A stretch of DNA of 64,000 nucleotides, taken from the NCBI RefSeq assembly GCF_964204645.1, contig NC_134034.1, positions 8,010,962 through 8,074,961 of the forward strand. Direction: 5' to 3'. Source of the DNA: Tubulanus polymorphus (taxonomy: Eukaryota; Animalia; Nemertea). The notes under the pieces were generated by a model. That model made no database searches. It was not told where the DNA came from and was given only the letters and a program-made list of their open reading frames with translations. Positions 34,866 through 56,466 of this stretch are shown here, piece by piece. Positions within the stretch are counted from its first letter, which is position 1. Every line of letters begins with the position of its first letter. A program made the translations under genes and the position numbers.

Positions 34866-35851
34866 TAGAAATAGCGGTTCCTGAACTTCGCTGAAAAAGC
34901 TGAATCACTGAAACGCTGAAACGCTGAAATAAAAACGCTGAAATTTCAGGGAATTTCTGAAAAACGCCGAAATTTCAGGGAATTCCCGAAAAACGCTGAA
35001 ATCGTGCTAGGTACCAACAATACACGTTTTGAAATATTTTCCGAGCCGGTAGTAATAGGGAATATGTTGTTTCAGGCCAAAGGTCGAACGGTCGAGTTCA
35101 TTAAAAACAAAACATTAAAAGTAATTTAAAACTATAATATATTTTCATAACTGTGTGCATTTTATATTAAAACTAAATATTTATTCTAAGATATCAATAA
35201 TTTAAAAAGCATATTGTATTAAATCAATTGGTCGCTCCACTTCGCTACCGCTCCGCTCCGCGACCAATTGATTTATTTACAATACGCACATTCATATAAT
35301 CAAATATATTCAAATAATAATAATAATTCTATTATTCAACTGAAATACACACGGTTATGGAAATATATTATAGTTTTAAATTACTTTTAATATTTGTTAT
35401 TAATGAACTCGACCATTCAACCTTTAACCTGAAACAACATATTCCCTATTACTCTTAAAACATTCATATATATGGATAAAATATATATGAATAACATATA
35501 AATTGATAGATTATTCAATATAAAAGTGTGAGCAAAGTGTTAGTAAAAAAGTAACGAGTAATTAACGAGCTCTTATAAATAGATATATAGATATATTTTA
35601 AACATATTTCAATATTTATATTTGGTATGAGTTAGATTTTTAAACATTAAAAGTGTTAGTAAAGTGTGATTAAAATAATTAATATATAAATCATTAAATA
35701 TTTATATTTATATGCGTTAAATTCTTATTTTCAATATAAAAAGTAACGAGTAATTAACGAGTGAAATAATTCATATTTAAAACAGTGAATATTTATATTT
35801 ATATGCGTTAAATTCTTATTTTATGTTTAAAAGTAACGAGTAATTAACGAG

Positions 35852-36373
35852 TTGATGAAAATATCAATTTTAATAACAAAATTACTTATAAATATGAATG
35901 AACAGATACTACATTTCAAAGATATTGATTTAAATGAATTAGAAAAATATTTTACAATTAAAAATTTCATTCCTATTAAAGATTTGATTAAAACTGCGCG
36001 TCTTCGTTTTCAAGTGAAAAATATTACTGAATTAGTGTTTAAAAATCATTATCTAATGATAGAGTTATCGAATGATAAAGATAAAATCTTATTCAATACA
36101 ATAATTCCAAAATTCACAACATTTGATGGAATAGATAAACATCTAATAATTACAGATGAAATGCAATCACTTTTTAATGATGAAAGTACATTATTAAATC
36201 ATAAAAAATTATTTTTACACTTACGTTATTGCCCATTCAGAGAATGCTATGTTATGTTTTTCAGATTACAAGAAAAGAGATTCATCCCTGACATTCCAAA
36301 TGCGCAAATAACCAATAGCGCGAATAGAAATCAAAAAGATTTAAATAGAAAAACAATAAGTTACTTTATCTAA
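35852..36373 (+). CDS. Hypothetical protein of the mini-element
   Basis: 173-codon open frame in very AT-rich DNA; in-frame ATG near 35894 preceded by TATAAAT. Confidence 0.5.
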   Translation: MMKISILITKLLINMNEQILHFKDIDLNELEKYFTIKNFIPIKDLIKTARLRFQVKNITELVFKNHYLMIELSNDKDKILFNTIIPKFTTFDGIDKHLIITDEMQSLFNDESTLLNHKKLFLHLRYCPFRECYVMFFRLQEKRFIPDIPNAQITNSANRNQKDLNRKTISYFI

Positions 36374-36856
36374 TCCTAACTTATTTAACTTATTGTTTTT
36401 TTTATTTAAATCTTTTTGACTTCTATTCGCGCTATTGGTTAACAAGAATTGACTAGAATTCAAATAGATTTAACAAGAAATTCAATAACTTTAACTGTTA
36501 GTATCACTCTTGTATTATTTCATTGTTTCTCTTATTGAATAAGCCAACTAACTAATATCACTCTTGTATTATCCTAGTCAAATGTAAAGAATTTACAATA
36601 TCATACTTGAATGGATTAAAACATAAATTACTTCTGTTACTTCATTTTCAGAAATAAAGCATAATATGTATTTAATACCATTAATACGTATTTAATACCA
36701 TTAATACGTATTTGATACGTATTTAATACATGGTATTAGGGTATCTAATAGGGTATCTAATACATTGATACCTCAACCCCCCTTTTTATTAACTTTTATT
36801 TTCATACATTTCAACTAATATATTTTATATTTTCAGCTAATCTAACAGTTGATTTC

Positions 36857-37045: not shown

Positions 37046-37225
37046 CTGTTTTATACTATAAATTGAAAAATAAGTAATAGGGAAAAATATTCCCTATTAC
37101 TGCCGGTGTCCGCTGCTGAGTCCTGAACCGTGTTTTAGTCTCTACCTTCGGTTACAGAGACATGCATGGACAGTATGTGTGGAGTATACTTCTAGAGGGC
37201 CACTTGTTGGACAAATTAATTCGTA

Positions 37226-37960
37226 TGGAATACCTCAAGGGCCATACGACTTACGAGTTACGTTTTACGACTTACGAGTTACGTTTTACGAGTTACGATT
37301 TACGAGTTAAGTGTTGGAGTTTCGGTTCGCAAGAGTTCAAGGACAGTGGCCACGTGGTAGGCATTTCACTGTGCGGGTGTATTATTAGATGAATAACTGT
37401 AACGATGATGGATGGCTGTATGCAGCCCAGTGTTTTCAATAAATAAATAAATTTTTTTTTCTAAATTGATGAATCTTGTTCTAATTTTTAAAATCATTTC
37501 CAGCTAAGATCTAATGAAATATCGTTTATTAAAATCATCGTGCACGTAACGGGGCAGTCATCAGTCAGTGTGAAATGTATTTTCAGCATTTAATAGATTT
37601 TGAGAAGGTTCGCACAGCAGATGGCCAACGCGCAGATTTTCTGCCCTGTAATAGACCACTGCAGTCGAGATTGATTCACTATGTACAATAAATTACTCTT
37701 ATTATGCTGTTTGAAATGACAATTCGACTTCATTTTGAAACCCATTCTTTGAATTACGCGCTTCGTATATCCGAAGCCAATTAGTGAAAAACGTGTAATT
37801 CGTAAAACGTAAGTCGTAAAACGTAAGTCGTAAATCGTAAGTCGTAAATCGTAACGTATTGTAGGAAATGAATAAGTAACTCGTAAAACGTAAATCGTAA
37901 CTCGTAAAACGTAACTCGTAAAACGTAACTCGTAAGTCGTATGGCCCTTGAGGTATTCCA
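37226..37960. mobile_element. Foldback-like MITE with 7-bp subrepeats
   Basis: Perfect TIR TGGAATACCTCAAGGGCCATACGACTTACGAG, TA flanks, inverted arrays of TTACG(AG/TT/AC/AT). Confidence 0.75.
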
Positions 37961-38983
37961 TAAATTCGCTTGAAATCCGGATTTTTAATGCATACAGGCA
38001 GCATAATGAGGAAAACCTATTCACAAACCGTGCAAGCCAACTTAAACACTATGCTCAATATTCCCTGCAAGACGCAAAATATCTTATTTGAACGTTCATG
38101 TATAAAACATGGAGCAACTTTTCTTTTGTCAACACGTTGATGGGCGACGGACTATGGTATTCTCTGAAGGAGGTAAATTAAATTTGACAGCTAGTTATAT
38201 AAATGATGCAGCTTTTGGACAAAAGGGATCTAACTAAATTTCTTTTTAATGCACTGACACTGTGGAATGGAATGGATTGACCCCAATGGCATGCAGTAGG
38301 CCCCTACGTATGGGTCATACTGATTAGCGTCAACCAATTAATCTAAATCGGGCGAACCATTCAACAACTGTGAATAATTTATTTGCTGTGGCGTGATGAT
38401 AATTAGTTTTTTTTTAAAGAAATGACATACCAACTGTTAGGAAAATGTACCGATTCTTATTTTTAGACTACTACTGAATCTATAAAAGGAGGAGTCATAG
38501 ACAAAGTTCATTTGCTTAGCTGGAGACACTTCTTGTCAAGTACATCATCTCAAGTACTGGGTGTTTTGTAAGTTTAATTTCAGTATTTATTTATTAAGTG
38601 CTGTTCCATCGGACCGCAGTGCTTTCAAACTAGGCCCACCCCATAGGCTATGTAGTCCAGGGTGTATTAGCCACTATTCTTTTATATCCTACTAAAATGA
38701 GCGCACCTTTTTCTATTTTTAGATTCAGGCTTAGAATGTGCAAATTCTTTGAGATACTGAGAAATCAGATGGCACCAGTAAACTTCAACTCCGAAATTTG
38801 CAGCAGGATAGCTGAACGACACAATTTTTAAAAATAAAATGGCTATTCGAATGCTATTTCAATAATAACTTGATTCAACCAGAGAGAAATAAGTCAATTG
38901 TGGATGTACAGTACACGCACTTTTCTTCCCTGTTTCCTGGTACCTAATTTTTAGTCTTAAGCTTAGCGATATTCTAAGGTATG

Positions 38984-39155
38984 AGTAATTGTAAGAGTGG
39001 GGTTTCAGATCAGAGGTCGGGAGGTCGAGACACCACTCATCACCACAAGTAATTTTTTTTCCTTATAAATGGGGGAGAATGAACACCAACCAGAAAATAA
39101 TAATGTTAATGAAAATCAATATCATTGTCCATATTGTAAAAAATACATCGATAAA
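38984..39155 (+). repeat. Maverick left TIR (extends into the polB 5' end)
   Basis: Reverse complement of about 56562-56727. Confidence 0.9.
39049..39071 (+). promoter_or_regulatory. Representative copy of the element-wide TAATTTTTTT-N(4-8)-TAAATG gene-start motif
   Basis: GTAATTTTTTTTCCTTATAAATG; related copies at nearly all other gene starts in the element. Confidence 0.75.
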
Positions 39156-42100
39156 TCCCAAAAATCACGACATGAAAAATCTGCAAATCATATAAAAAAT
39201 GTAATAGATTTTGAAACTCCAGAAAATTCCAATGAAAGAAAAGAACGATTAGAAAATATGAATGTGGATGAAATAAAATGTGAAGTTTGTAATGAATTTA
39301 TAATAAAAAGGAATTATAATAGACATCTCAAATCACAAAAACATTATAAAAATTTAAATAAAAATGTTTTAGGATCAGAATATTTTGATAATAAACCTCA
39401 ACAAGTAAAAAAATCAACTTCAAAAACTAAATCCATTTCAAATAAACCTTACATGGAAAATGTTAGAAATTATATTGATTCACTAGAAATAAAAGATACA
39501 ATTGAAATTTTAGAAACATTACATAGTAAAATTGGTCCTGCAGCTATTATATTTAGATTTTTTAAAGGTACAACAATAGAAGATTATAGTAAATTTAATG
39601 AAATAATAGAAAAAATACTGGATTTGATAACAGATGTTGAATATCCAAAAATTAGTATCTCTGGGAAAGTAAGTTTTATAAAGTCAGAAGAAAAGATGAA
39701 TTATAATATTCAAACACTCTCTGAAGAAATAATTTCAAAAACACAAATAAAAGAGAAGTTAGAAAAAATATTAAATGAATTTAAACGTCATATTGAAGAA
39801 AGATATTTTGAGGGTTCTGGCTTAACATTGAATGAAATAATATATTTAGATTTAAATGTTTATAATACAAAAAGAAATAAAACATCAAAAAGTAATAAAA
39901 TGTTTAAAAATGATTCAAACTTTACAACAGAAAAGGATATTAAAGCATCATCTTATATTAAATTACCATTTATAACAAAAGCAGTAATAAATATTCAAAA
40001 TGAAGATAATAAATGTTTTCTATGGTCAATTATTAGTTGCTTACATCCATCACAGGAAAATGTTTGTAGAATAACAGATTATCGGAAATATGAAACATTA
40101 TATAAAATTGATCAATATCCAGTAACTATAAAAATGATTCCTAAAATAGAAAAAGTTAATAATTTAAAAATAAATGTATTCGAATTAATGCAATTACCAA
40201 AGACAAAAGGTGAAAATATTAAAGATTATACACTGGAAGCTTTATATTTAACAGAATATTATGATGATGAAAATGCTATAGATTTGTTATATTATAAAAA
40301 AGATGAAAATGAACATTATATGTGGTTAAAACAAATTGATTTATTCTTTAGAACAACAGAAAGTGATCATCATCGTAAAATTTATCTATGTAGAAAATGT
40401 TTATCTAAATTTATGACTGAGAATGCGTTACTAAAACATAAAGAATTATGTGATAATAAAGATTTTTGTAAATTAATAATACCAACAGAAAAAGATTATA
40501 AATTGAAATTTACTAATCATAAATTTAAGAATATTGTTCCATTTGTAATTTATGGGGATTTTGAATCGTTGAATAAAGAATTAACTAATCAAGATAGAAA
40601 AGAAATATATAACAAAAAGCAATTATTAAAATCAATGGATAAAGGAAATGAATTAAATGAAGACACAATACAAGACCCACCAATTATAAATACAATTAAA
40701 AAAGTTCATCAAAGAGCTGCTGCTTATGGAATTTATATAAAATCAAATTATCCTGAATTATATGAAAGTCAATATATTTCTTTTAGAGGTGAAAATGTAG
40801 TTAATGATTTTTGTGATAAAATGATTGAATTAGAAAGTGATTTTGCAAAATTATTAAACAAAAATAAAAGAATAGTTACGTCAAAAGAAGATGAAATTGA
40901 TTTTATTATGCAACTCATTGTTGTTATTGTGAAAAACGTTTTTATTCATTTGATAAAAAGTTAGAGATCATAATCATTTGAATTCAAAATATCGTGGAGC
41001 TGCTCATGAAGATTGCAATTTACAAGCTAAAAAAGTAAATTTCGTACCAATATTATTTCATAATTTATCAGGATATGATACCCATCTATTTATAAAACAA
41101 TTATCGGGAAAATTGGGCGCAATTAATCAAGAAATAGAAGAATATAATGCTATGAATGAAGCAAATGTAAGAAAATATGATTTTGAACTATTAGCTAAAA
41201 CATCTGAAAATTATATTTCATTTCAATTTGGTTGCATTAGATTTTTAGATTCTTATAGATTTCTAGCAAGTTCATTAGATAATTTATCAAAAAGTTTAGT
41301 TGATAATGATTTTATAATAACTCGATATTATTATCCAAATGACCAAGATTTTAAATTATTGAGATATAAAGGCGCAATTCCTTATTCATTTTATAAAACA
41401 CACAATGATTTTAATGTAACAGAATTATTAAAAGATCAATTTTATGATCAATTAAAAGAGGAGTATGTGAAAGACGAAGTTTTTAATAGAACATTAAATA
41501 TTTGGAACCATTTTAAGATGAAAAATCATGGCGAATTAGTTGATTTATATTTAAAATCAGAGGTTATGATATTGGCTGACATATTTGAAAAATTTAGAGA
41601 AGTTAATTTGAATCATTTTAATGTTGATCCTTGTTATTGCTACTCTAGTCCTGGTTTAACCTGGCAATGTGGTTTAAAATATACAAATGTAGAATTAGAT
41701 TTATTAAAAGAACCAGATATGGTTTTATTATTTGAAAAATCAATTAGAGGTGGAATTAGTGGTGTTATAGGAGATAGATATTTTAAAGCAAATGATGAAT
41801 ATAAATTATTATATATTGACGCCAATAATTTATATAGTTGGGCAATGATGCAACCTCAACCATATAAAAATTTTATATTAACAGAAGTTGAAAATGGTGA
41901 TAAAACTGATTGGGAAAGCGCAATTGCGAGTTTAAAAGATGAAGCACCAATTGGTTATTTCTTTGTAGTTGATTTAGAATATCCTGAAAATATAAAGTTT
42001 TAAACAAGAAACTTACCTTATTGCCCAGAACATTTAACTGTAGATGATAGTTATTTAAGTGAATACCAGAAGAAAATAAAACCGAAAGATCATGTTTTTA

Positions 42101-44134
42101 CAGAAAAATTAATACTTACTCAAAATAATAAATACAATTATATTGTTCATTATAGAATGTTAAAATTTTATCTAAAACAAGGAATGAAATTAAAGAAAGT
42201 ACATAGATATATTGAATATAATCAATCGAAGTGGTTAGAAAAATATATAGATTTCAATACTCAACAGAGAACCATATCAAAAACAGATTTCGAAAAAGAT
42301 TTTTTTAAATTAATGAACAATAGTTTTTATGGTAAAACATGTGAAAATATTAGAAATAGAAATGATATTGAATTAGTAAATAATTCTGAAAGATTAAGAC
42401 ACCTACAATCAAGTCCTAGACATTTAGGAAATAAAAGATTTGAAGATTATTTAACAGCAGTTAAATTAAAAAGAACATCAATGAAATTTAATAAACCTAT
42501 ATTTATTGGTTCGACTGTTTTAGAAGTATCAAAATTATTAATGTATGATTTTTATTATAATGTTTTACAACCACTTTTTGGGGAAAAGCATATTGAAATA
42601 TTATATTTTGATTCTGTAACAGCTGACACCCCAATATTATTAAAATGTAATAATAAAATATTGGTAAGAAGAATTTCAGAAATAATTCCAAAACAAAATG
42701 AATGTTATATTTCATATGGTGAAAAAGAATTAATACAAATAAATGGATTAATGGATGTTTGGACAAGAAATGGATGGAAAAAATTAAAGAATATTATTAG
42801 GCATAAAACAAATAAGAAAATCTATAGTGTTAGAACTAAATTAGGATTTGTAGATGTTACAGAAGATCATAGTTTAATTAAACGAAATGGTGATGAAATA
42901 AAACCAACTGATATAAAAATTGGAGATGAATTATTACATAAAAGATTTTTCCAAAGAATGAATCATATGTCATTTGATGAAATTATTGATAATATTTATA
43001 ATATAGAACCCGAAACATTGGAAGACAAAGAATATTTTATCAAAGGATTTTTCATGGGCGATGGTTCAGCAGGTGTGTATAATTATGTTTGGGGTAATAA
43101 ATATTGTTGGTATTTATGCAATCAAGACTTAAAATTATTAGAAAGAATTAAGAAATTCTGTGAAGAAGTTTATTCACATAAAACATTTAGAATCATGGAT
43201 GTTATGAAATCATCAGCAGTTTATAGAATACTTGTAAATAATCCTAAAGATTTTGCTATAAAATATAATAATGAATTCTATATTCATGCAATAGTGAAAA
43301 GTAATACTTCAACAAAAGAAAAGATAGTTCCAGATTATGTATTAAATGCAAAAAATAATTTAAGAAAATGGTTCTTCATTGGGTTCTATGCTGCAGATGG
43401 TTCAAAAAGTTTCAAAAACCGCAAAACAATATCTTTAGCTCAAAAAAGGAAAAGTTGCTATATCAGGATTGAATATATTATGCAATTCATTAGGTTTTAA
43501 TATGAATATTGGATTTATTAAATCTAAACCAAATTACTTTAATTTAAGCCATGTAGAAAATGAGTTAACAGAAGAAGTTAAAGATTTATTTGAAATATAT
43601 AACCCAACAGATTATGTTTATGATTTATCAACTGAGGATGGTACATTTAACTGTGGATTTCCATTAATAGCGGTCAATACTGATGCGTACATACTAAAAA
43701 TCAAGACAAATGACATAACAAAAGACTTAAAAACATTAAAACATCATTTTGATTTTAGCAATTATCCCAAAGATCATGAACTATTTAGCAATGATAATAA
43801 AAAGATTCCTGGTAAATTTAAAAATGAATTAGGGGGTGATGAAATGATTGAATTTGTTGGGATACGAAGTAAAATGTATAGTTACAGAACAAAAGATCAT
43901 GAAGCTAAAAAGTTAAAAGGAATAACAAAACATGTGGTTGATAAACATATAGAATTTCAAGATTATATAAAGTGTTTATATAAATCAATTGTAATGAAAC
44001 ACAAAATGAATTGTTTAAGATCAGAAGATCATGAGATGTATATTAATGAAGTTGAAAAAAATAGTTTAAATCCATTTGATGATAAAAGGCATATTTTAGA
44101 TGATGGTATAAAAACATTACCTTATGGTTATTAA
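39069..44134 (+). pseudogene. polB: Protein-primed family B DNA polymerase with N-terminal zinc fingers, an EndoVII-like insert and an intein; three lesions
   Basis: Exo I YGDFES, RDHNH...YRGAAHEDCNL, Exo II FHNLSGYD, motif A YIDANNLY, motif B KLMNNSFYGK, motif C YFD/TD split by the intein, KMYS and KKLKGI. Frameshifts near 40901 and 43445; in-frame TAA at 42001. Confidence 0.95.
42613..43678 (+). other. Intein with LAGLIDADG homing endonuclease inserted in PolB motif C
   Basis: YFD|SVTADTPILL (block A), VDVTEDHSL (block B TxxH), IKGFFMGDGS and FIGFYAADGS (LAGLIDADG blocks C and E), YVYDLST (block F), IAVN|TDAY (block G, +1 Thr). Confidence 0.93.
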
Positions 44135-44186
44135 AATGGGTCTATATCATCAAACTCGAAATCACTATTGGCTTCTTCATTTTCAT

Positions 44187-45443
44187 TTAATTGTTTAGGT
44201 TCTTCCATTCCATTTTTTTTTCATTTAAATAAAGTTCTATCTTGTTCCACATTTCATCTCGCTCTCTTTGTTTCTTTTTGTTTGTTAATTCGTCAAATGG
44301 AATTATAATATCTAGGTTTAAATAATTTACAATCTTATTTAAAAAGAATTCATAATTTATTGAATCTGTTATTCTATTTTCCAAATGATACATTAATATT
44401 TGTTTAAATATTTTTTTTATATTTTCCATATCTTCTTCTGTTAATTTAGGTTTTTCATAATAATCGTTAAATAATGAATATAAATACATTTTCTTTTGTT
44501 TTGTGTTAAATGTTGACGGAATAATTGTATTTATAATATCTTTTTTAGTTATTTCACCATTTTTATTTTCTATTATTTTCATTTTTTCAAGCCATTGCAT
44601 ATATTCTGGTGTATGATCTTCTATAGAAAATATTTTAAAAATTTCATCAAGATAATTTAATTTTGGATCTATGAGAAAATTTCTAGTTTTTTCTTCACCC
44701 CATAAATTCTTTTGCCATCCACAATCAACACAAAATAACACAGTACCTTCTTGCCTTAAGGTCGCATAAATACATTGTGGGCATTTTTGTTTATAATTTA
44801 TTGGTAATAGATCTTCTTTAAGCTCTTGGTATTTTCTTACGTTTTCTTTATGTTTTATTGTTCTATTATGTAGATTTGAATTACTTGTTGTAATAATCAA
44901 TTTACAATATTTACAATAATATGTTTTTCTTGTTAATTCATTATATTGTTTTTCTAACTTTTCAACTGTTTCATTATTATCTGGTAACGTTTTCTCATAT
45001 TTTATTTTTTCTAATAAATTATTTTTTCTTTCATTAAATTCAGTTTCAAATTTATTAGAAATTTTATCTATATGTACTTTACGAAATTGATGATTCTCCC
45101 AATCTTCTATATTTTCAGGGCTATATTTTATTCGACAAGGCTCACAGAAATGATCTTTTATATTATCCTTATCATAGAATAAGAAAGGTCTTTTCCAAAT
45201 AACTTCAGGTTCAACTTCGGCAGAATTACTATTACTTTCATTACTATCAACATTAGCCGTTGCGCCATTAATTCTACACTTCTCTGAATGTTTTTTAACA
45301 TAATTTCTTGAGAATAATTTATTACATTTTGGGCAGTTTATTTTAGGGGGTTTATAATTTTCATCATGTTTTTTCATATGTCGAGCCATATTACTTTTTC
45401 TTAGAAGTTCACCACAAATTTCGCATGCTATCTTCTCATCCAT
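44187..45443 (-). CDS. Zinc-finger protein fused to a poxvirus A2/VLTF-3-like late transcription factor domain
   Basis: About four N-terminal C2H2/C2HC fingers; C-terminal CPQC-x13-CVDC ribbon, NF...KLNYL, KIFKQI...SINYEFFLNKI and a terminal W, recalling vaccinia A2 (CxxC-x13-CxxC ... TINYSFFLDKI) as compared from memory; ORF intact. Confidence 0.75.
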   Translation of the reverse strand: MDEKIACEICGELLRKSNMARHMKKHDENYKPPKINCPKCNKLFSRNYVKKHSEKCRINGATANVDSNESNSNSAEVEPEVIWKRPFLFYDKDNIKDHFCEPCRIKYSPENIEDWENHQFRKVHIDKISNKFETEFNERKNNLLEKIKYEKTLPDNNETVEKLEKQYNELTRKTYYCKYCKLIITTSNSNLHNRTIKHKENVRKYQELKEDLLPINYKQKCPQCIYATLRQEGTVLFCVDCGWQKNLWGEEKTRNFLIDPKLNYLDEIFKIFSIEDHTPEYMQWLEKMKIIENKNGEITKKDIINTIIPSTFNTKQKKMYLYSLFNDYYEKPKLTEEDMENIKKIFKQILMYHLENRITDSINYEFFLNKIVNYLNLDIIIPFDELTNKKKQRERDEMWNKIELYLNEKKMEWKNLNN

Positions 45444-45510
45444 TTATTTAGGAAAAATTTTATTAAAATTAATTTTTAGTGATGATGGTAATTTTTTTAT
45501 GTTATAAATA

Positions 45511-46266
45511 ATGGTAGAATTAAAAGAATACAGAATATTTGTTGATTCTAGAAGACTTACTAATTATAAATCACATAATTTACTAGTACAATTAGATAGA
45601 GAATTCAAGAATTGTGTTGATTTAAAATTAATAAATATAAGTTTATGTAACTCATTTTATAATATAACGGCTAAAACTTTTGAACATAGAGACTTTTTAA
45701 TTCATATTGGAAATAAAAATAAATGGTTTCATCTATTTTTAAAACCAGGATTATAAAATTTAGAAACATTAGCCCAAGAAATTAATCAGAAAGCACGATT
45801 AAAACTTGAAAGTGAAGATAAATTTTCAATTAGATTTATAAAAAGTGATAGTTCTGATAAAATTAAAATAAAGTTAGCCAATAAACAAAATAAATTTATG
45901 GTAAACAAACCAATAGCTAAAATGTTAGGAATTAAACCGCGTATTGTTACTGGAAACGTAGAAGGTAGCTCAAATATAATACCTTACACACATTTCTATA
46001 TTTATTGTAATTTAATTGACCCAACAAAAACATTTGAAGCAAGTAAAGATACAATTTGTATTTCTGGTTTATTAAATATTTTACCATTAAAAAATGTCAA
46101 ACAATTTGGAACTCAAATAAATTATAATTTAACTGAATGTGATTTCAAACCTTGCATTCCTAAATTTAATAATTTTAAATTAGAAATAAGAAATCATAAT
46201 GGTTATTTAATTGATTTGAATAACTTTCCTGTGATATATGAATTAGTTATAAGATGTAAAGAGTAA
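45511..46266 (+). pseudogene. Minor capsid (penton) protein with one in-frame stop
   Basis: IFVDSR, NSFYNI, FYIYCNLI, LEIRNHNGYLIDLNN pattern; the two ORFs share a frame and are split by TAA at 45754. Confidence 0.75.
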
Positions 46267-46282
46267 TTTTTTCACTATATAA

Positions 46283-46528
46283 ATGAATATAACTGTTGGA
46301 CCGAGTATATGTTTTGGGTTTGATTTTAAACGTGAGAAAGAAATGAAATTTAACATTAATGATGTAATTACACAAATCAAAAATATTGTATTTTCTAATG
46401 AAACAACATTTAAGTATGAAAAAACAATAGATAAAGAAACTTTAAATGTAGAAAAGATTACTAAATTAATTAGAGAATCTTTAAGATTTTATGAATTAGA
46501 TGAAGATTTTATCATCGATGATATTTAA
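46283..46528 (+). CDS. Maverick hypothetical protein (possibly truncated)
   Basis: ORF starting at the element's conserved TAAATG motif. Confidence 0.55.
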   Translation: MNITVGPSICFGFDFKREKEMKFNINDVITQIKNIVFSNETTFKYEKTIDKETLNVEKITKLIRESLRFYELDEDFIIDDI

Positions 46529-46639
46529 AAAATAATAATTGAAATATATACAAATGAAACTAGTAATGAAATAAATGTTGAATTAATCATAAATAAGTTA
46601 ACTAAATATTTTGAAGATAGTAATTTTTTTGATTAATAA

Positions 46640-46861
46640 ATGAGTGATAATAAGTGGTTAATAACTGGATTATATAATGGAGCATTACTATCAGTTGGAA
46701 CTGTTGGTCATTCAATGGTATTAAAAAAAGTATTCAAAATGGGAAGTGTTAATGTTGATAGATTTGATATAAATGATATTTTAAAATTAACATTAGCAGT
46801 TACTTTATCTAATTTAACAATTGATTATTTGGAAAAACAAAAATATATTCCTCCCATATAA
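46640..46861 (+). CDS. Small hydrophobic Maverick protein
   Basis: TAAATG start; two hydrophobic segments. Confidence 0.65.
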   Translation: MSDNKWLITGLYNGALLSVGTVGHSMVLKKVFKMGSVNVDRFDINDILKLTLAVTLSNLTIDYLEKQKYIPPI

Positions 46862-46885
46862 ATGCATAATTTTTTTACTAAATAA

Positions 46886-47308
46886 ATGGCTTCTGCAATT
46901 ATAACTATTATAGGATCGGCAATTGTTAACGCTTTGGCATTTACTGGTGGTGGATATTTATTTAAACATTTTGATAAAAATAGTTCATTAGGAGAACAAA
47001 GAAGACATAACTTAGCATTAGAGAAATACAATAAAGCAGCAGAAGAATATAGAGAAAAGAGGCAAAACTATATGGATTATATTAACAAAGAATTATATGA
47101 TCAGAAGATTTCACATAGAGATTTTCAATCAGTTGATGATGCAATGAGTTTATATAACGCAGTAACAAATAAAGAAAAATTACATCTATACAAACCTAAA
47201 TTATCAGATTATTTTACCCCAAGTAATGAACAGAAGAAATATGAAATAATTTGGATTTTAGGTGGAACAGTTATTGTTATATTTGTTGCTTATAAGTTTA
47301 ATAATTAG
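46886..47308 (+). CDS. Maverick membrane-associated protein
   Basis: N- and C-terminal hydrophobic helices flanking a coiled coil with EQRRHNLALE; TAAATG start. Confidence 0.7.
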   Translation: MASAIITIIGSAIVNALAFTGGGYLFKHFDKNSSLGEQRRHNLALEKYNKAAEEYREKRQNYMDYINKELYDQKISHRDFQSVDDAMSLYNAVTNKEKLHLYKPKLSDYFTPSNEQKKYEIIWILGGTVIVIFVAYKFNN

Positions 47309-47329
47309 TAATTTTTTTTGCTAAATAAA

Positions 47330-47763
47330 ATGAAGATAAAGTTGATAGTATTGATATCATTCCTCATGATATAAATAAAACTAAATTAAAAATATATTTA
47401 GAAAAACAAATATTAGAATTTGAAAGTGACTTAAAGATAAAAAAGAAAAAATATTTAAAAAGTTAAATTATATATTATTTGATTATAAGTGGTTCGGTTA
47501 CAATTAGTTCTGTAATAACATTTCTAGCAATATTCAGCCCATTAACACCTTTAGCTATATCAATTGGTGTGTTAGGATTAAGTTCAAGTGTTTTAACTGG
47601 CATAAGTTCAAAATTAAATATAAAAAGTAATAAAGAAAAAATTAAAACTAATATAAAAGAAATTAATAAATTAAAGAACACACTAGATTATATCATAAGT
47701 TTAAATGGTCATATAACAGTTGAAGAACAAGATAAATTATTAAAAGAATTAATAAATTATTAA
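47330..47763 (+). pseudogene. Two-TM Maverick protein, disrupted N-terminus
   Basis: Motif-associated ATG at 47330; the open hydrophobic ORF spans only 47479-47763. Confidence 0.55.
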
Positions 47764-47779
47764 TTTTTTTATTAAATAA

Positions 47780-49168
47780 ATGGTAGATAGTTTTCCAAAA
47801 GCTTTCCAATATAATAAATCAATTAAACATAATATTCCAGCAATAGATTTTAATAAAGATATTACATATAGAAATGAAGTTTTAGATTCATTAACTAATT
47901 TAGAAATTTATGTTACTGAAAATAATAATTTTAATGCAAAGATGGAAAATATATTTCATGTATATCTAATTGATTTTAAAAAATTGAAAGATGAAAAACA
48001 GTGGTTATTAAAATCTAATATGAAGTATTGGCAGAACCAATTAAATTTTGCTGTTTATTGTGCAACAACGGGTTGTGGAATTAGTTGGAATGATCATTTG
48101 AATAATTGTAAATATAAATTAATTCAAAGTTTATTTAGATTTCATACATACTTTCAAATCAGAATAATATTAAATGAATTAGAGTGCGCTTTACCAGGAT
48201 CTAGGTATTTTAAAGAATTAGATAATAATATTAATTTATCAAAGTTTTATAAAATTTGTAATGAATTTAATATAGATATAAATAATTCTGATTTTAGAAC
48301 AAAAATTGGAACAATAAGATCACTTCCTTGCCCTAAAAAGATTGCAGAATATTGTGCACTTCCCATACCATCTAATAGTTTGTATAATATCTATAGTCAT
48401 AAATTAGGTTATGGTAAAATAGAAACTAAGGATTTAGAAACATTAAATTTCAATAAATTACCGACATTTTATGATAATTTAAAACAAGAAAACAATAATA
48501 GTTGGGTTTAATTTATTTTAGAAAATAATGAAGGTTTTACAAAATCAGGTATACAAAGAATAAATCAATCTATTAGAACTTATTTGATATGTATTCTAGG
48601 GGCACAAGTTGAAACAAGATCCCCAATAATTGGAAATTTAAATACATCATTTGATACGCAGAAACAATTCAAAGTATTATTTGAAGATTCCATACATAAT
48701 GATAAAAATAGATCGATTCCAGAAAACATTGTAAGATATCAAAATTATTTAGATAAATCACATATTAGATTAAATTATTGTATAGGCCCTAATCTATTAA
48801 TTATTTCTAATGATTTAGTATTAAAGATGGGAAATATAATTGGTTATAATAATCTAATTAAAACTGCAACAATTAATAATTCATTTGGATTGAATGATAT
48901 AAATAAAAAGATTATCACTGCTCCAAAATTAATGGAAGGTGAAAAAATTAAAAAACACATTCAATCAACAGAAACTAAAACTTAGAATATTAAATTAAAT
49001 AATGATTCTGAAATAAAAGATTATAATACTACAGAAAATATTAAAACTGATAATATTCAACATGATATAATTAAAACTGATAATGATAATAAATCCCATG
49101 AAAATACTAAATTAGCTATAACGTGTATAGGAATTGTAATCGGAGGAATATTATATTTTAAATTTTAA
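47780..49168 (+). pseudogene. Maverick protein of unknown function with C-terminal TM; two in-frame stops
   Basis: WQNQLNFAVYCATTGCG and FRFHTYFQIR; single frame with stops at 48509 and 48983, ending LAITCIGIVIGGILYFKF. Confidence 0.7.
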
Positions 49169-49185
49169 TTTTTTTTATTATATAA

Positions 49186-50652
49186 ATGGATGTAGAAGGT
49201 GGAGAAGATATTGGAATGGATAATTTTGATGAACCTGGCATAACTGATGAACAACCACCTGATTTTGATGAAACAAGTTTTAATGATGGTAATGAGCCAG
49301 AATATAATAATAATTTGAATATGCCTGATTATATTAAAAATGCTGAATCACAATTAAATCCTGAAAATTTAGACCCAGATTTAGTAAAACAAGATTTAGA
49401 TAATTTAAACAAAATACCTAAATTAGAACGTATAATTGAAAATTCTAAACTTAACATAAATGATGAAGACGTTGGACTTTTAGTAGATCAATTAAAATTT
49501 TTAGATAATGGTAAATGTTATTATCGTTTGAAAGGTGATTATTATATTGATATCACTTATAAAAATAATAAAAATAAAATATTATCAGAATCAACTTTAG
49601 AAAAATTAAAACCAGATAGAATTAAAATAATAAGTAATAGTAATGAAATAACTGATGTTACACAAAAAGAAATAGATGATAATATAGACGTATTTAAACA
49701 AAGAATTAATGAATTATTTGAAATAATCAAAAAGCAATCAGAAACAGAAACAACTTCTGAACAGAATATAACTTCCAAAAATAGTAAACTTAAATCAAAT
49801 AAAGTTCCAATTGAAAAACTTTTACCGAATGGATTAATTGATGCAACAGATCAACAATTAGAAGATTTAAATATATTTTCTGATGAAGCAATTAGAGAAA
49901 TTATTAGTATAAGAAATGAAGCTGATAAAATTGCACATAATAAAAGTATGAGATCAAAAAATTATGTATTTGGAAAAAGAATTAACTAATTTTTAACTAA
50001 TTCAAATAAAGAAATAGAACAAATAAAGTCTGATTTAGATCATCAAGTAATTGATGAAATAGAATATAGGCAAAAAGAATTACGTTTAGAAAAAGAAATT
50101 AGTAATTTAAAAGATAATTTAGAAGTACAGAAAGAAGAAATTAAATTATTATTAAAATCATATGATTATAATATTAATAGATTAAAAATTATTTTTAAAG
50201 ATTTGTTGATTAAACCAAATTCTGAAATATCATTAAAAGATAGAATAAAGTTATTATTTAAATTAGAAGGAATAACAATTCTTTCAATTCGAACAGCTGT
50301 AACTATGTTATTTACAACAATTGGTTTAGCAATATCAAATGCTTTGAAATCTACTCCTACTCCCAATAAACCGGATAAACCCCCGAATGATAATAATTCT
50401 ATACAAGATAAAGTTAAGGATGGTTCAAAGAAATTAGCAAAATATTTATGGGAACTATCTAAAAAATCTGCTGCAGCTTTACCAGAAATTATTGCATCAA
50501 TTGTATGTTTTATATTGAAATCTGCTGGGAATATTCTTAACTTTGCTGCTGAACATATTGTTTTATTTTTAATTACAGTTGTAAGTGCTATTATTTTTGG
50601 GTTAGTAAATATGATATCAAAAAGATATCAAGAAAAAAATAATAAAAAATAA
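49186..50652 (+). pseudogene. Acidic, coiled-coil protein with a hydrophobic (membrane-active-like) C-terminus; one in-frame stop
   Basis: ORFs 49186-49989 and 50203-50652 share a frame; C-terminal amphipathic/TM helices; lies just upstream of the MCP. Confidence 0.65.
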
Positions 50653-50676
50653 ATAATTAATTTTTTTGTTTAATAA

Positions 50677-51924
50677 ATGAGTGGGAGTTATATAAGTCCT
50701 TCTAAGATTTCTAGAATATCTAATGCTATTAAAGCAGAAAGATCACATCATATAATTACTCATAACCCTTCAAATATTAATCCCGATGAAACTTTATATG
50801 TTAGAATTCCTAGATTAACACAAAATACTTTTTATGTTCCAAATAGTATTTATTTATCAACCGATATAAAAGTAACTGGCCATGATAACAATTATGTTGT
50901 TGATAATGTTGGAAGATATTTGATTAAAAAATTAACTATTAAGATTGGTCCAGAAACAGTTTTCTCATTAGATGATTATAATTTATTTATGCATTATAAA
51001 GATTTATGGTTAACTAAAGAAAATAGAAATAATATTATATTTCAGGGTATTCAATCAGAAAACCATAATAAATTAAGATCAGGAGCTAATGACGCAATAG
51101 TAACTCGTGTCACAGATAATTTGATTAAAAAGATTTATGGAAGCAAATATAAAATTCCATTAGATTTTGAATTGATAAATAATAATGCACCTTTATATAA
51201 ATACGCAATTCAAGAAGATATTATATTTGAGATAACATTTGCTCCTGTAAATGAAATTGTATTATCTAGCGTTGTTAAAGATATGGGTTATAAATTATCG
51301 AATATATGTTTAGAATATAACACAGTAACTAATGAAAATATTGCTAGCACAATTCAAACTCAATACAATCAAGGATTTTCATTATTATATGATTATATTG
51401 ATAAATTTAAAACCGTAACTATTAATGCAAATGATGAAATAATTAATGAGAATATTAACTTCCCGAGAAGATCTATTAAAGGTATATTAATATTTTTTAC
51501 CATTGCAACATATTCTAATGGTGCAATAAAGGTAGATAATTATTATAATCCTGAAATAACAAAAGTAGAAATAACTATCGAAGGAATAGCAAATAAAATA
51601 TTTTGCCAAGGAATGAGAATGATAGATCAGTGGCCAGAAATTAGAAAACATTTTATGAATGAAAAAGTAAAATCATTTGAAAATTGTAATATTAATCAAA
51701 TTGATTATTATACCAGTAATAAATATGCATTATGGTTAGATTTTAGAACAACAGAGGATAATTCATTACATGGTTCTGGAAAAAAACTACAAAACACTAA
51801 AGATGGAATACAATTATTCATGAAAAAGAAAAAAGGAGACAAAAATTTCAAAATGCACATTTATATTATATCTGACGCACAATTAAATATTGTAAATTCA
51901 CAGTTAGATAGTATTCAATATTAG
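50677..51924 (+). CDS. Major capsid protein (double jelly-roll, Maverick type)
   Basis: Intact 415-aa beta-rich ORF with HNPSNINP..LYVRIP, VVDNVGR, YALWLDFR..DNSLHGSG; size and position next to integrase and ATPase. Confidence 0.8.
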   Translation: MSGSYISPSKISRISNAIKAERSHHIITHNPSNINPDETLYVRIPRLTQNTFYVPNSIYLSTDIKVTGHDNNYVVDNVGRYLIKKLTIKIGPETVFSLDDYNLFMHYKDLWLTKENRNNIIFQGIQSENHNKLRSGANDAIVTRVTDNLIKKIYGSKYKIPLDFELINNNAPLYKYAIQEDIIFEITFAPVNEIVLSSVVKDMGYKLSNICLEYNTVTNENIASTIQTQYNQGFSLLYDYIDKFKTVTINANDEIINENINFPRRSIKGILIFFTIATYSNGAIKVDNYYNPEITKVEITIEGIANKIFCQGMRMIDQWPEIRKHFMNEKVKSFENCNINQIDYYTSNKYALWLDFRTTEDNSLHGSGKKLQNTKDGIQLFMKKKKGDKNFKMHIYIISDAQLNIVNSQLDSIQY

Positions 51925-51953
51925 AAATATAAGTTAAAATTAACAATATATAA

Positions 51954-53081
51954 ATTGGAGGTAAAAAAACTCCTAATACTAAAGAACAATATTTAAGAAA
52001 TTTATATTACAACCCTGAGAGTTCGGTTGCTTATTCTTCTACCAAAAATATATGGCGTCAAGTAAAACAAGATAAATTAGATAAGATAATCCCACAAAAT
52101 TTAGTTAAATATAAAGATATAAATGAATTTATGTTAGAACAACCAACATATACAACACATAAGAAAATTGTTAGAAAATATAAAACTCGTAAAACTATGG
52201 TAAGTTATGTAGATCAACAGTGGCAAGTAGATTTAATTGATATGAAAAATGTTAAGAAAGATAATGATGATTATTGGTGGCTATTGAATATAATTGATAT
52301 TTTTAGTCGTTATGTATGGAGCTTCCCACTTTATAGAAAAGATGCTGTACAAACATCAAATGTTTTAAGAAAATTTCTTTCGGATGATAAACTAAAACCA
52401 GAAAAAATACAATTTGATGATGGAAAAGAGTTTGATAATTCACTTGTTCATGAACTCTTAGATAATCATAATATTAATTATTTTTCAACAAAATCGGATA
52501 AAAAAGCAGCAGTTGTTGAACGATTTAATAGAACATTAAGAACAAGAATGTGGAAATATTTTACAGCAAATAATACTTTTAAATGGATTGATGTTTTGCC
52601 AAAATTGATAGAAGGATATAATAATTCTTATCATTATTCTATTGGAATGAAACCTATTGATGCTAGAAAACCTGAAAATGCTGAAATTGTTTGGAATAAT
52701 TTATATGGAGCATTTCTTGTAGATGATTTTGGTGAACCTAAATTTAAAGTTGGTCAAAATGTTAGAATTTCTAAGTATAAAAAGATATTTGATAAAGGAT
52801 ACGATCGAAATTTTACTATAGAAATATATAAAATAAAAAAGGTAATAACAACAAAACCATATGTCTATAAATTAGAAGATTTAGATGGTGAAGAAGTTGA
52901 TGGCTACTTTTACGAAGAAGAATTAAGTTTAACTACTGAAAATCTAGAACAAGAATATAAAATTGAAAAAGTATAAAAAACAAAAACTATTAAAAGAAAA
53001 AAATATTCTTTAGTAAAATGGGTTGGATGGCCAGATAAATTCAATGAATGGATATTATCAAGTAAAATTAAAAATATATAA
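51954..53081 (+). pseudogene. Retroviral-like (rve) integrase with C-terminal chromodomain
   Basis: LYYNP, WQVDLIDM, IDIFSRY, QFDDGKEF, VVERFNRTLR; LVKWVGWPDKFNEWI follows the in-frame TAA at 52974; start codon apparently mutated to ATT at 51954. Confidence 0.92.
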
Positions 53082-53690
53082 ATGAATAAGGAATTATTCA
53101 TATTTGAGCCTCATAATATGTTAATGTCTGGTGTAACAAATTGTGGAAAAACTTATTTTATATTAAATTTATTAGAAACTGTTTATGAAAACTATTTTGA
53201 TAATATAGTATTATTTTGTCCAACATATGAATTTAATCAAACTTATGATAGAAATATTACTAGGAATAATAAATTTATTGTATTAGATCCTAAAACAGTA
53301 AAAGAAAATTTAAATAATTGTATTAAAATAGCAATTGATATTTATAAAGGATCAAATACATTATTTATCATAGATGATTGCGCAAATTTACATGATTCAA
53401 AAGTTAGAGAAAGTGAGTTATGTTATCTAGCTTTCTCTGGGAGACATTTTGGGATAACAACATGGGTTTTAAATCAAAAATATAATTCAATTGTTAAAGA
53501 CTTTAGGGAGAATATAAGATTTCTAGTTTTATTCTACAATAAAGATAGAAAATCAATGAAAAATGCACTTGAGGAAAATGATATTATTCCACATGATTTA
53601 CATAATGAATATATGGATAAGTTGAAAAATATTAAAAGATCAAAATTACTATTTAGATTACAACACCCATTTAAATATGAATTTATTTAA
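53082..53690 (+). CDS. DNA-packaging ATPase (FtsK/HerA, A32-like)
   Basis: Walker A GVTNCGKT, Walker B LFIIDD, GRH...LNQ motif; intact. Confidence 0.9.
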   Translation: MNKELFIFEPHNMLMSGVTNCGKTYFILNLLETVYENYFDNIVLFCPTYEFNQTYDRNITRNNKFIVLDPKTVKENLNNCIKIAIDIYKGSNTLFIIDDCANLHDSKVRESELCYLAFSGRHFGITTWVLNQKYNSIVKDFRENIRFLVLFYNKDRKSMKNALEENDIIPHDLHNEYMDKLKNIKRSKLLFRLQHPFKYEFI

Positions 53691-53945
53691 ATTCAATTAG
53701 TTTGTTAATCTAGTTGAATTCTAGTTATTGGTAGTTGTAACAAAAATCAACTAGATTTTAACAATATTGTAACTAGCTTGTTAATCTAGTTTAATTCTAG
53801 TTACATTCTAGTTGAATTCTAGTTATTGGTAGTTGGAACAAAAATCAACTAGATTTAACAAGAAATAAACAAAAATAACAATATTTCAACTAGCTTGTTA
53901 ATCTAGTTGAATTCTAGTTACATTCTAGTTGAATTCTAGTTGCAA
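53691..53945. repeat. Intergenic tandem array built from ~11-bp CTAGTT-core units
   Basis: Repeated TTCTAGTTGAA, TTCTAGTTACA and AATCTAGTT within larger ~100-120-bp blocks. Confidence 0.8.
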
Positions 53946-53973
53946 CATCACAACTAATTTTTTTGTTATATAA

Positions 53974-54547
53974 ATGGTAGGTGAAAAGAAAATAAAATCT
54001 AAAAATGGTGATGTTCCAATTGAAAAAACTTTAGATGATTTAGGAATAACAGAAAACAAATTAATTCCAGATGATGGTGCTTTAAATAATGTTACAACAA
54101 ATAATAATTATGAATATTATCTTTACTGTAAACATCAATTAGAAATATTAATAGCATCTGGAAAATGTAAAAATTTTGTCGGTAAAAATTTAACTTATAA
54201 TGAATTAGATACAATGAAATCAGATGAAATTTTAGATTATTTAAGATTTATGAAGCCGCGAGAACAGCTAGAATTAATGACGCGATATCAGAAAATGTAG
54301 TAAAAGGTTATAGTAAATTATGTAATTATATTCCGATTCAAAAAATGATTATTTAGTTATGACTGAATTAAATAAATGGATTGGATATTTATCATTTCAA
54401 TTAGGTGGATTTATGACATTATTATCAACTGGGGTTATAACATTTTCAAATATTGAAAGTAAAAATATTTCTATAATAAATGAGCGAGGTGAAAGAAGTG
54501 AAGGAATTAACTGTGAAGAAAAAACCGAGAACTCAGAAACAAATTGA
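53974..54547 (+). pseudogene. Maverick hypothetical protein, frameshifted
   Basis: TAAATG start; ORFs 53974-54300 and 54359-54547 appear to be pieces of one gene. Confidence 0.5.
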
Positions 54548-54824
54548 ATGGTCTCGGCAATTAGGAATTAAATCACAAGAATATAAAAAAGCTGTAAAAG
54601 AAAAAATAAGTAATAAAAATGTTAATAAAAATAGTGAAAATATTGTTATTTCTACTCCTTCTGATAATAGAATATTTGATAAATATTTATATTTTACAGT
54701 TGGATTTGTAATTGTATTCATTTTGATTGGGTGTAATTGGTATAAGAAATCAAATAAAATTCATGATATTAATAATTCTGAAATGCTATCAAAAATGAAA
54801 ATACTTCTGAAATTCCAAAATTGA
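54480..54824 (+). CDS. Basic N-terminus plus single-TM Maverick protein
   Basis: TAAATG start, KKKPRTQKQIEWSRQLG, hydrophobic YLYFTVGFVIVFILIG. Confidence 0.6.
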   Translation: MSEVKEVKELTVKKKPRTQKQIEWSRQLGIKSQEYKKAVKEKISNKNVNKNSENIVISTPSDNRIFDKYLYFTVGFVIVFILIGCNWYKKSNKIHDINNSEMLSKMKILLKFQN

Positions 54825-55971
54825 CAATAAAAAAAATGGATTAATATTTTAGAAAAAAAGCAAAAAAAATAATTTTTTTTAATTAATTGAATATCTCACT
54901 ACTTTTGTCTATCTATGCGGAGCAATTAAATTGTCCAGATAAGTCATTTCGGATTCTAGATATTCATTATTTTTATTAATTTATTTTGTTTTTACTTGAA
55001 TATTGTATTACAGTCGTTTCTTATTATTAGTTTTTTCTTAAATTGAAAGATGGCAGCACTGGGTGTGATGCTAAAATGAATATTTGAATTTGAATTTGAA
55101 TTTGTTTATCAATTAACATAGTAATTGATTACTAATTTGATTAAAAATTATATCATAATTAAGTTAAAAATCCATAATTCATTTATCAGTTTTCATTCTT
55201 ATATTCTTTTCATTCGGAATAATTTATAATTTCAAATTTCATATATTTTTTTAACACCAGCAACATTTACTTAGGTGTTTTAGCTAAGTATATAAGGCAA
55301 TTCATTCAACCACTGGAGTGCCGCCGGGCTTGGCTTGCAGGGGCATTTCGAAAATGCACCTTTGTCCACCCTCCGTGGTTCTCCTTCAGTTTCGACTTTC
55401 GATCCTCCTTTCGGGGGTAAGGGGTTGATAGGAAATGCATTAGGCGCCTTTAATATAATGTGTTTCCTGTCAACCATTGAAGGAGAATTGGTGAGGTGTG
55501 GGTCACAGGGGTGTAATTAGAAATGCTTGGGGATAGGTATCTCGTGGCGCCTCTCAATAACGGGATGCTTATCCCCTAAAAACTCTGTGAGTCAAGTCGG
55601 GTGGTTTTGCTAAAACTTACCGTAAAAACATTGAAATATTCCTTTTAATCACGAGAGAATGATGACTATCCTCCTGTCGTCACGGCCGAGCTAATTTAAA
55701 TAAACCTCGCTTTCAGCAACCAATGAAAACGTGGTGGTTCAATGCCGGCTAACTGGCTTGTGTGTGTTGTATGTACTGCGTGCTTAATATATAACTGCTA
55801 GCTATCCAATATAACAACAACGTTGTGCAACACCTGTTTGATTGATCAATATTTAAATGAAGCACTCTCTTATAATAACATGTAACAGATGTTTGACTGT
55901 ACGATTGTAGTTGTTTATAAAACGACGAAGGTCATTTTGGATTCTAGATATTCATTATTTTTATTTTTTAT

Positions 55972-56298: not shown

Positions 56299-56466
56299 TT
56301 ATAAGGAAAACAAATTACTTGTGGTGATGAGTGGGGATTACTTCCCCTGTATATAACAAACACGCTATTAACCGTTCTCACCCAAGCCTCACAGCATCTA
56401 TTTATCCAGGTACAGTTAACACACGCGCAGCTGTTGTTACGCGCACTCACTGTTTATGTGTGTCAC

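Follow-up and report, generated by a model that had tools for sequence, protein, structure and literature searches.

How animal Mavericks express their genes, and whether they need or fight a helper virus, are long-standing questions, expression being usually assumed to be nuclear and host-transcribed. They are raised by a 64,000-nucleotide stretch of the Tubulanus polymorphus genome (NC_134034.1, positions 8,010,962 to 8,074,961; the window, whose own numbering is used below). The window holds a Maverick/Polinton of 17,744 bp and 24% GC (38984 to 56727) and, on the minus strand inside it, a gene (44187 to 45443) for a 418-residue protein, P0001, which joins N-terminal zinc fingers to a domain resembling VLTF-3, the poxvirus late transcription factor (vaccinia A2L; PF04947 and PF08792). 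The original prediction, made from the letters alone, had placed this gene within a Maverick but outside its core set, and had imagined the protein as an activator of element genes or as a decoy against a helper virus. The location was borne out by inverted repeats at both termini and by the 6-bp target duplication GGTATG, which flanks the element at 38978-38983 and 56728-56733. Here we ask what the protein is, how the genes around it start, and who might transcribe them.

The C-terminal domain of P0001 is a VLTF-3 homolog

Residues 221 to 410 (44214 to 44783, minus strand) consist of a zinc ribbon, CxxC-x13-CxxC at residues 221 to 241, directly followed by a helical domain with a predicted cyclin-box fold. 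The motifs named in the original prediction (the ribbon spacing, NF....KL.Y/HL, IFK......EN, INY.FFL.KI and a late W) align collinearly with real poxvirus A2 over A2 residues 6 to 198, at 21 to 28% identity, and the ribbon spacing is identical in 13 aligned A2s. BLASTP against poxvirus A2 gave 27% identity over 199 amino acids (45 bits). A motif scan of viral contigs yielded 117 loci, 23 of them with full-length proteins of 224 to 228 amino acids; all five proteins from these loci that were scanned with Pfam carried both Pox_VLTF3 and the A2L zinc ribbon, and 13 proteins from the scan were collinear with the query. Shuffle and masking controls were added because this A2 set had been picked by a motif common to the query. 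The A2 profile scored the C-terminal domain at 31.0 bits (maximum of 1,000 shuffles, 8.0) and, with the search motif masked, at 8.6 bits, a value reached by none of 1,000 matched shuffles. A giant-virus profile, built from six Pfam-found VLTF3s of other records that were not chosen by motif (a seventh, lacking the zinc ribbon, was excluded), gave 17.1 bits (shuffle maximum, 7.8) and, after masking, 2.9 bits, reached by 23 of 1,000 shuffles. For the full-length protein, the masked score was 0.3 bits, reached by 76 of 1,000 shuffles and not significant.

Searches of whole libraries gave a similar picture. Across 1.84 billion proteins, phmmer, an unbiased homology test, found four matches, including P0037 (E 2e-5), a Pfam-verified Pox_VLTF3 and A2L zinc-ribbon protein. 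Pox_VLTF3 clusters took 27 of the 30 ESM Atlas matches to residues 212 to 418 (top score 0.93; 201 of 256 features), and an alignment query with the C-terminal domain returned 29 proteins, all annotated as Pox_VLTF3 (27 full length), with no Maverick members. Word-index protein searches with this domain returned no match, the zinc fingers were the sole part matched in a PDB sequence search, and neither viral-contig scans with the fusion gene, the capsid or the ATPase nor a prokaryote genome scan gave any loci. The Pfam check that had been proposed failed: Pox_VLTF3 and A2L_zn_ribbon gave no row for P0001, its C-terminal 207 amino acids, or the related proteins P0034, P0035 and P0036. We conclude that residues 221 to 410 are a true VLTF-3 homolog and that the homology is solid; the profile, library-wide, language-model and fold searches agree on VLTF-3, closest to poxvirus A2, both profiles beat 1,000 shuffles, and Foldseek matches to VLTF-3s fall at E ≤ 0.001 (below).

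The domain has poxvirus affinity and a predicted TFIIB-like layout

A profile of the three-member fusion family scored ten poxvirus A2s at 44 to 58 bits against -3 to 37 bits for six giant-virus VLTF3s, and poxvirus A2 ranked above giant-virus VLTF3 in the profile, library-wide, language-model and fold searches. A fold model built on a chordopoxvirus A2 alignment (predicted local distance difference test score, pLDDT, 74) gave four Foldseek matches in BFVD at E ≤ 0.001, namely cowpox A2 at rank 1 (E 3.7e-6, TM 0.66), entomopoxvirus VLTF-3s at ranks 3 and 4 and one unnamed protein, with B385R of African swine fever virus at rank 17; the best fold match is thus a poxvirus VLTF-3, as foreseen, in a ranking biased by the alignment behind the model. 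The single-sequence fold was poor (pLDDT 41) and had no Foldseek match at E ≤ 0.001, although ranks 1 and 2 were VLTF3s, and against the PDB Foldseek found none at that threshold.

In an unrooted tree of 21 rows, the six giant-virus proteins split from the Maverick and poxvirus sequences at 98/100, so that part of the phylogeny envisaged in the original prediction stands. The three fusion proteins cluster at 89/93 outside the chordopoxvirus clade (99/100) and are not nested within it; their sister group is unsupported (12/58), and the envisaged Asfarviridae rows are absent. Judged by its sequence, the VLTF-3 domain has pox affinity; we do not claim a specific donor, because the tree lacks a root and rows for asfarviruses, egoviruses, mriyaviruses and named entomopoxviruses. 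Two stand-alone VLTF3-like proteins, P0036 and P0037, lie on contigs of 13 and 9.4 kb; P0037 clusters with poxvirus A2 (84/85) and may stem from an undescribed pox-like virus or its small parasite.

For the helical part of the model, cyclin-box proteins (cyclins, TFIIB, Rb and Orc6) accounted for the majority of the 33 best rows, at Z 5.2 to 6.7, a modest match of a size common for helical bundles. Human TFIIB (Z 6.3, root mean square deviation 4.1, 93 residues aligned) likewise has an N-terminal zinc ribbon followed by a cyclin-box fold, and the zinc ribbon with one cyclin box predicted here would amount to a TFIIB-like layout. The Maverick protein differs in having a single cyclin repeat, at 9% identity, its 190 residues leaving no room for a second, and Pfam TFIIB gave no row for it. 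The case raised in the original prediction, that a host TFIIB-like protein would match better, did not arise, as sequence and fold matches to VLTF3 were far better.

Four zinc fingers and the VLTF-3 domain form a conserved fusion

Residues 7 to 198 (44850 to 45425, minus strand) hold four C2H2/C2HC-type fingers, starting at residues 7, 37, 100 and 177. The fourth passes the Pfam model of the U1-type finger (zf-U1, residues 174 to 205), the sole family above cut-off in P0001. As had been noticed, the fingers resemble those at the N-terminus of the element's DNA polymerase, PolB (pairwise E 1.6e-8 to 3e-6, with composition correction off), and A2, which begins at the zinc ribbon in the alignment, is without them. 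Relative to A2, the Maverick protein adds about 220 N-terminal residues with the four fingers, matches nothing of the C-terminal ~25 residues, and lies below Pfam detection.

The same four fingers and VLTF-3 domain occur in P0034 (697 amino acids; cluster mates P0038 and P0039) and P0035 (446 amino acids), and no family member has lost the zinc-ribbon cysteines or the core INY/IFK motifs. Among metagenomic sequences, L001 is related to the element, with 75% identity in the capsid protein; a cut open reading frame (ORF) at its end is nearly identical to the N-terminus of P0034. Because P0034 and P0035 share fingers and domain, and the P0034 N-terminus matches the L001 ORF, the fusion characterizes the family and did not arise by accident in this copy. 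In L001, the fusion ortholog adjoins a deoxynucleoside kinase gene (L001:10340-10981; Pfam dNK, E 1.7e-31), a nucleotide-supply gene unusual for a Maverick. Three partial relatives have other zinc-finger proteins, P0002 to P0004, behind the capsid gene (L002:2461-3687, L003:1748-3043 and L004:2287-3120), with the same A-rich start variant as the fusion gene; by every profile tried, these are not VLTF3.

The fusion gene is under purifying selection

The minus-strand ORF from 45443 to 44187 is open throughout, with no internal stop, and is one of three minus-strand ORFs taken as element genes, in keeping with the earlier remark that such genes are few. The meaning that had been attached to its intactness among broken neighbors did not survive. 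Other genes of the element have 8 breaks over 12,085 bp, a rate at which zero breaks in 1,257 bp have P = 0.44, falling to about 0.3 (by hand) when further breaks seen against L001 are added. Such intactness does not exceed what chance allows (P about 0.3-0.45), and two other genes, for the capsid and the ATPase, are likewise unbroken. Because 111 of 193 genomic reads carry a frameshifting length difference at an A-run near 44213, this copy has probably lost the reading frame of most copies over its final ~8 codons; in P0034 and P0039, an acidic tail continues the C-terminus. Upstream of 44213, no frameshift was present at ≥15% of reads among the variant sites listed.

The fusion family is under purifying selection. 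The gene's stretch has 114 variant sites, 40 of them listed. Leaving aside nine that fall beyond the ORF and one located downstream of the A-run indel, 30 were scored. Thirteen of the 30 were synonymous against 17 to 25% expected (p 0.0007-0.02), giving a rough dN/dS of 0.3 to 0.4. Read depth in the genomic run (1,934 million letters) was ~250 on the fusion gene and up to ~950 on the virion genes, and reads diverge at 45510 (334-343 reads). The element family is multi-copy, with the fusion gene apparently confined to part of the copies, and the gene looks accessory because virion-gene depth is 2 to 3 times higher; the view that it is not a Maverick core gene is thereby supported.

Nearly all element genes start with a poxvirus-late-type motif

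We examined starts, defined as the first ATG after a stop in frames of ≥70 codons, in the element and in L001 to L004. Of 55 such starts, 42 read TAAATG; among 1,676 other ATGs, 84 did (p 9e-40). The element in the window has it at 12 of 20 starts, the eight exceptions being six internal pieces of broken genes, one antisense frame and one TAAAT lying one base off the ATG; the flanks have it at 1 of 42. The TAAATG starts have T at -9 in 39 of 42 cases and at -10 in 31 of 42, and ≥5 T in -13 to -7 in 28 of 42, against 8 of 84 internal TAAATG (p 6e-11). As a control, we counted starts of ≥100 codons in 22 further loci, mostly partial, that share the element's PolB motif. In 21 of these other Polinton-type loci, TAAATG occurred at 9 of 223 starts, one of them among the 10 starts of a locus with 22% GC; the motif is thus a general property neither of Polintons nor of AT-rich sequence. 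No VLTF3 was detectable in these 22 mostly partial loci. A lack of AATAAA avoidance and an avoidance of TTTTTNT in coding strands, considered as signs of cytoplasmic transcription, were found equally in the 21 other loci and were set aside.

In the vaccinia late promoter, as described, TAAAT and in most cases a following G span the start codon, and a T-rich stretch upstream includes a conserved T at a distance of ten bases (PMC11980589). The element's start motif matches this consensus, to which that of an actual helper might not be identical. Vaccinia intermediate promoters are A-richer upstream, and A2L itself is classed as intermediate (PMC11980589). The start of the fusion gene (45441 to 45473, minus strand) combines an A-rich stretch, a T-run and TAAATG over the start codon, and the L001 ortholog has the same variant. 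This may hint at an earlier class, a reading weakened by the equally A-rich start of the ATPase gene.

The motif might instead serve as context for translation starts or be left over from an ancestor with a cytoplasmic phase, with the role of the protein unrelated to promoters, for instance RNA binding through U1/matrin-type fingers. It does sit on the start codon, A-rich sequence precedes ATG in many other Polintons, and zf-U1 is the one family that Pfam recognized in the protein. A T-run at fixed distance is not a Kozak feature, however, and the motif is kept across relatives whose capsids are 71 to 76% identical. Stop-start coupling as the origin of TAAATG was rejected, since no preceding gene terminates at the TAA (the frames closed by it are open for 0-39 codons). 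We regard this explanation as very unlikely.

A pox-like helper virus as the proposed source of transcription

Neither RNA polymerase nor capping enzyme was present among the scanned ORFs of the element, whose 17.7 kb are filled by other genes, and 349 frames yielded no VLTF-2 (A1) homolog, which leaves the host or a helper to provide the polymerase. In the former case, host Pol II would transcribe the element and the TFIIB-like fusion would read T-run/TAAATG autonomously in the nucleus, having brought its sequence preference along. The predicted likeness of zinc ribbon and cyclin box to TFIIB and the integration of many copies into a nuclear genome fit this, as do the polymerase-less nuclear phycodnaviruses and mriyaviruses, which keep VLTF3 and are thought to use host Pol II (PMC12085832; mriyaviruses, PMC11253617). 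Against it, the VLTF-3 gene and PolB carry the motif of the capsid gene, which leaves no early class to start a cascade; the motif recurs in partial relatives where no such gene was detected, and many copies, judging by the reads, probably lack the gene; the gene shares just 67 bp with its divergently transcribed neighbor; and neither VLTF-2 nor, in a Pfam scan of element ORFs, a TBP partner was found. We consider host transcription with a self-supplied factor rather unlikely.

A helper is favored because a self-made late switch needs an early class, whereas here PolB and the VLTF-3 gene carry the motif of the capsid gene, and because the genes of mavirus-type elements share the late promoter motif of their helper (PMC8547959). 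We propose, at what we judge to be about even probability, that the element is a helper-dependent, virophage-like parasite of a poxvirus-like virus and uses its own VLTF-3 as an activator. Polinton-like parasites of entomopoxviruses exist (PMC11296320), and KilA is a precedent for gene transfer from pox relatives to Polintons (bioRxiv 10.1101/2024.03.23.586382). The integrated element would stay silent until a pox-like virus supplied a cytoplasmic RNA polymerase, capping enzyme and late factors. Helper polymerase would start inside TAAAT, which would make a 5' untranslated region unneeded and would fit the tight gene packing. The element's VLTF-3, predicted to be TFIIB-like and perhaps made first from its A-richer start variant, could then join the helper initiation complex, while the PolB-like fingers would tether it to element DNA and draw helper polymerase to element promoters at the helper's cost. 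The complete picture, an animal endogenous virophage of a poxvirus-like virus that lies dormant, is switched on through copied late promoters and diverts helper polymerase with a DNA-tethered A2 homolog, we offer only tentatively.

Several points count against dependence on a pox-like helper. Some belong to the homology evidence above: the missing Pfam match, the nonsignificant masked score of the full-length protein, the biased Foldseek ranking, the unrooted tree with its missing rows and a Maverick clade that is not nested in chordopoxviruses, and the modest cyclin-fold match. The higher read depth of the virion genes makes the fusion gene look accessory, and the partial relatives L002 to L004 have the motif while the gene was not found in them. 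L133, a control contig, has TAAATG at 7 of 8 starts, mostly without the T-run, and no VLTF3 in its 9 kb. The occurrence of VLTF3 in viruses thought to use host Pol II points the same way, and Polintons have been described as nuclear (PMC4405056). Neither RNA data nor a helper virus was found (three contig sets, unlabelled or guessed to be RNA, gave no match on the fusion gene, a result that does not bear on expression), and the host may not be a known poxvirus carrier. L133 (9,034 bp) is in itself an unrelated Polinton-type contig, with a 36% identical PolB and an apparent protease-integrase-chromodomain fusion, and may represent another lineage linked to a pox-like helper.

The element-wide start motif makes both roles that the original prediction had envisaged, activator and decoy, plausible in a helper-virus setting. 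As an inhibitor, the protein would be a diverged A2 mimic that enters the late initiation complex of the helper and blocks helper genes. All the evidence for helper dependence applies to this role too, the helper already supplies its own VLTF-3, making a second copy redundant as an activator, and identity to A2 is just 21 to 28%. But element promoters resemble helper late promoters, so that a plain inhibitor would silence the element as well, and the ribbon cysteines and core motifs have been kept throughout the family. We hold inhibition to be improbable.

Other genes of the element and its surroundings

The left terminal inverted repeat (38984 to 39180, plus strand) is 87% identical over 197 bp to the right one (56539 to 56727, minus strand); the left contains the PolB start motif and the right is accompanied by a shortened PolB start in inverse orientation (56437-56643). 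The element ends are confirmed by 437 genomic reads that join 38977 to 56728; the flank is itself repeated, so these do not imply an empty allele. At the right end (56291-56678), the PolB promoter and start recur twice in inverted orientation, heading a conserved 108-codon gene in one case and a truncated 68-residue PolB N-terminal piece in the other, and 181 reads skip 56467-56668.

Above cut-off, Pfam recognized DNA_pol_B_2, rve and Pox_A32 in the element. The protein-primed PolB (39069 to 44134, plus strand), with a T-run/TAAATG start, is broken by frameshifts near 40960 and 43500 and a stop at 42001-42003. An intein with a LAGLIDADG domain (42613 to 43678, plus strand; TIGR01445 over cut-off) interrupts it at the D|TD catalytic motif, a site that is uninterrupted in all 17 other Polinton-type PolBs compared. 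Elements of animal genomes rarely contain inteins. A quick PolB tree placed neither the element nor L133 with support.

The putative double jelly-roll capsid proteins are weakly recognized. The putative major capsid protein (50677 to 51924, plus strand; 415 amino acids, T-run/TAAATG start) is unbroken and 71 to 76% identical in L001 to L004, with Capsid_N at E 0.013 at best. The putative minor capsid gene (45511 to 46266, plus strand), the divergent neighbor of the fusion gene, was placed by position, has no Pfam match, and carries one in-frame stop and a T-run with TAAAT one base off the ATG. Conserved accessory or virion genes (46283 to 50652, plus strand) start at 46283, 46640, 46886, 47780 and 49186, each with T-run/TAAATG, and several are broken here. 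A SLATT-like two-helix membrane gene (47332-47763; weak Pfam SLATT_fungal) is broken here and intact in L001. The rve integrase (51954 to 53078, plus strand) is broken, lacking an ATG at its TAAAT site and having one in-frame stop; the A32-like packaging ATPase (53082 to 53690, plus strand) is unbroken, with a TAAATG start. Two small conserved genes follow (53974 to 54824, plus strand; starts at 53974 and 54480, both TAAATG), and a conserved 108-residue ORF (55972 to 56298, minus strand; TAAATG start) is 73% identical to its L001 counterpart and belongs to an unnamed family common in arthropod records, with a weak lead to a phi29-type single-stranded DNA-binding protein. No adenain-type cysteine protease was matched by Pfam in 21 ORF pieces, which broken or diverged genes could escape.

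The element's flanks contain retroelements. To its left, an AT-rich stretch (35051-35453 and 35608-36441) includes a 400-bp palindrome as well as an open frame of 178 codons (35837-36373) that Pfam does not match, and may be what is left of a different element. Two arrays of a repeat with a 7-base period (37224-37309 and 37795-37962), inverted to each other and ~570 bp apart, are probably the ends of a small non-autonomous transposon.

Relation to known systems and meaning

Mavirus is not known to encode VLTF3. Mavirus and the endogenous mavirus-like elements (PMC8547959) are like the present element in being integrated, in having protein-primed PolB and rve integrase, and in sharing a late promoter motif among their genes. 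Theirs is the TCTA motif of Cafeteria roenbergensis virus, in a protist with a proven helper, whereas here the motif is poxvirus-like, the host probably an animal and the helper hypothetical. The entomopoxvirus-associated Polinton-like viruses (PMC11296320) are also small Polinton-type elements tied to poxviruses; they are ~12 kb, lack rve integrase and have a protease, and their link is by co-purification, here by promoter and gene content. In the available main text of that paper, the terms 'promoter', 'motif' and 'VLTF' do not occur. From poxvirus VLTF-3, the present protein differs in its Maverick setting, where RNA polymerase, VLTF-2 and capping enzyme were not found.

A VLTF3 gene in a Maverick is not in itself new, contrary to what the original prediction had implied. 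VLTF3-like genes have been reported in stony-coral polintoviruses (PMC11131425, citing Krupovic and Koonin 2016), in MELD viruses (PMC8502044) and in Zephyrvirus Polinton-like viruses (bioRxiv 10.64898/2026.06.19.733378). The point is not widely absorbed, because a further paper states that VLTF2/3 are undetected outside Nucleocytoviricota (PMC11253617). As accessory genes of Polinton-type elements these cases resemble ours; as described in the available parts of those sources, they have no poxvirus affinity (one is mimivirus-like), no zinc-finger fusion and no promoter analysis. We did not find a pox-type VLTF-3 with a finger array, or poxvirus-late-type promoters (TAAAT(G)) in a Maverick/Polinton, in the literature covered, to which subscription papers and preprint supplements, where earlier notes may exist, largely do not belong. 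New here is the element-wide poxvirus-late-type start motif, and a pox-type VLTF-3 with a conserved four-finger fusion appears to be so too.

Poxvirus-late-type starts together with a captured pox-type late factor make the question of Maverick expression testable, and the motif is a sequence signature with which Mavericks may be sorted into helper-linked and independent lineages. The fusion protein, with its predicted TFIIB-like layout, is a natural variant for probing VLTF-3 function; we found no solved VLTF-3 structure. If the proposal is true, mavirus-style inducible antiviral defense would extend to animals, and an undiscovered pox-like virus of the host would be predicted.

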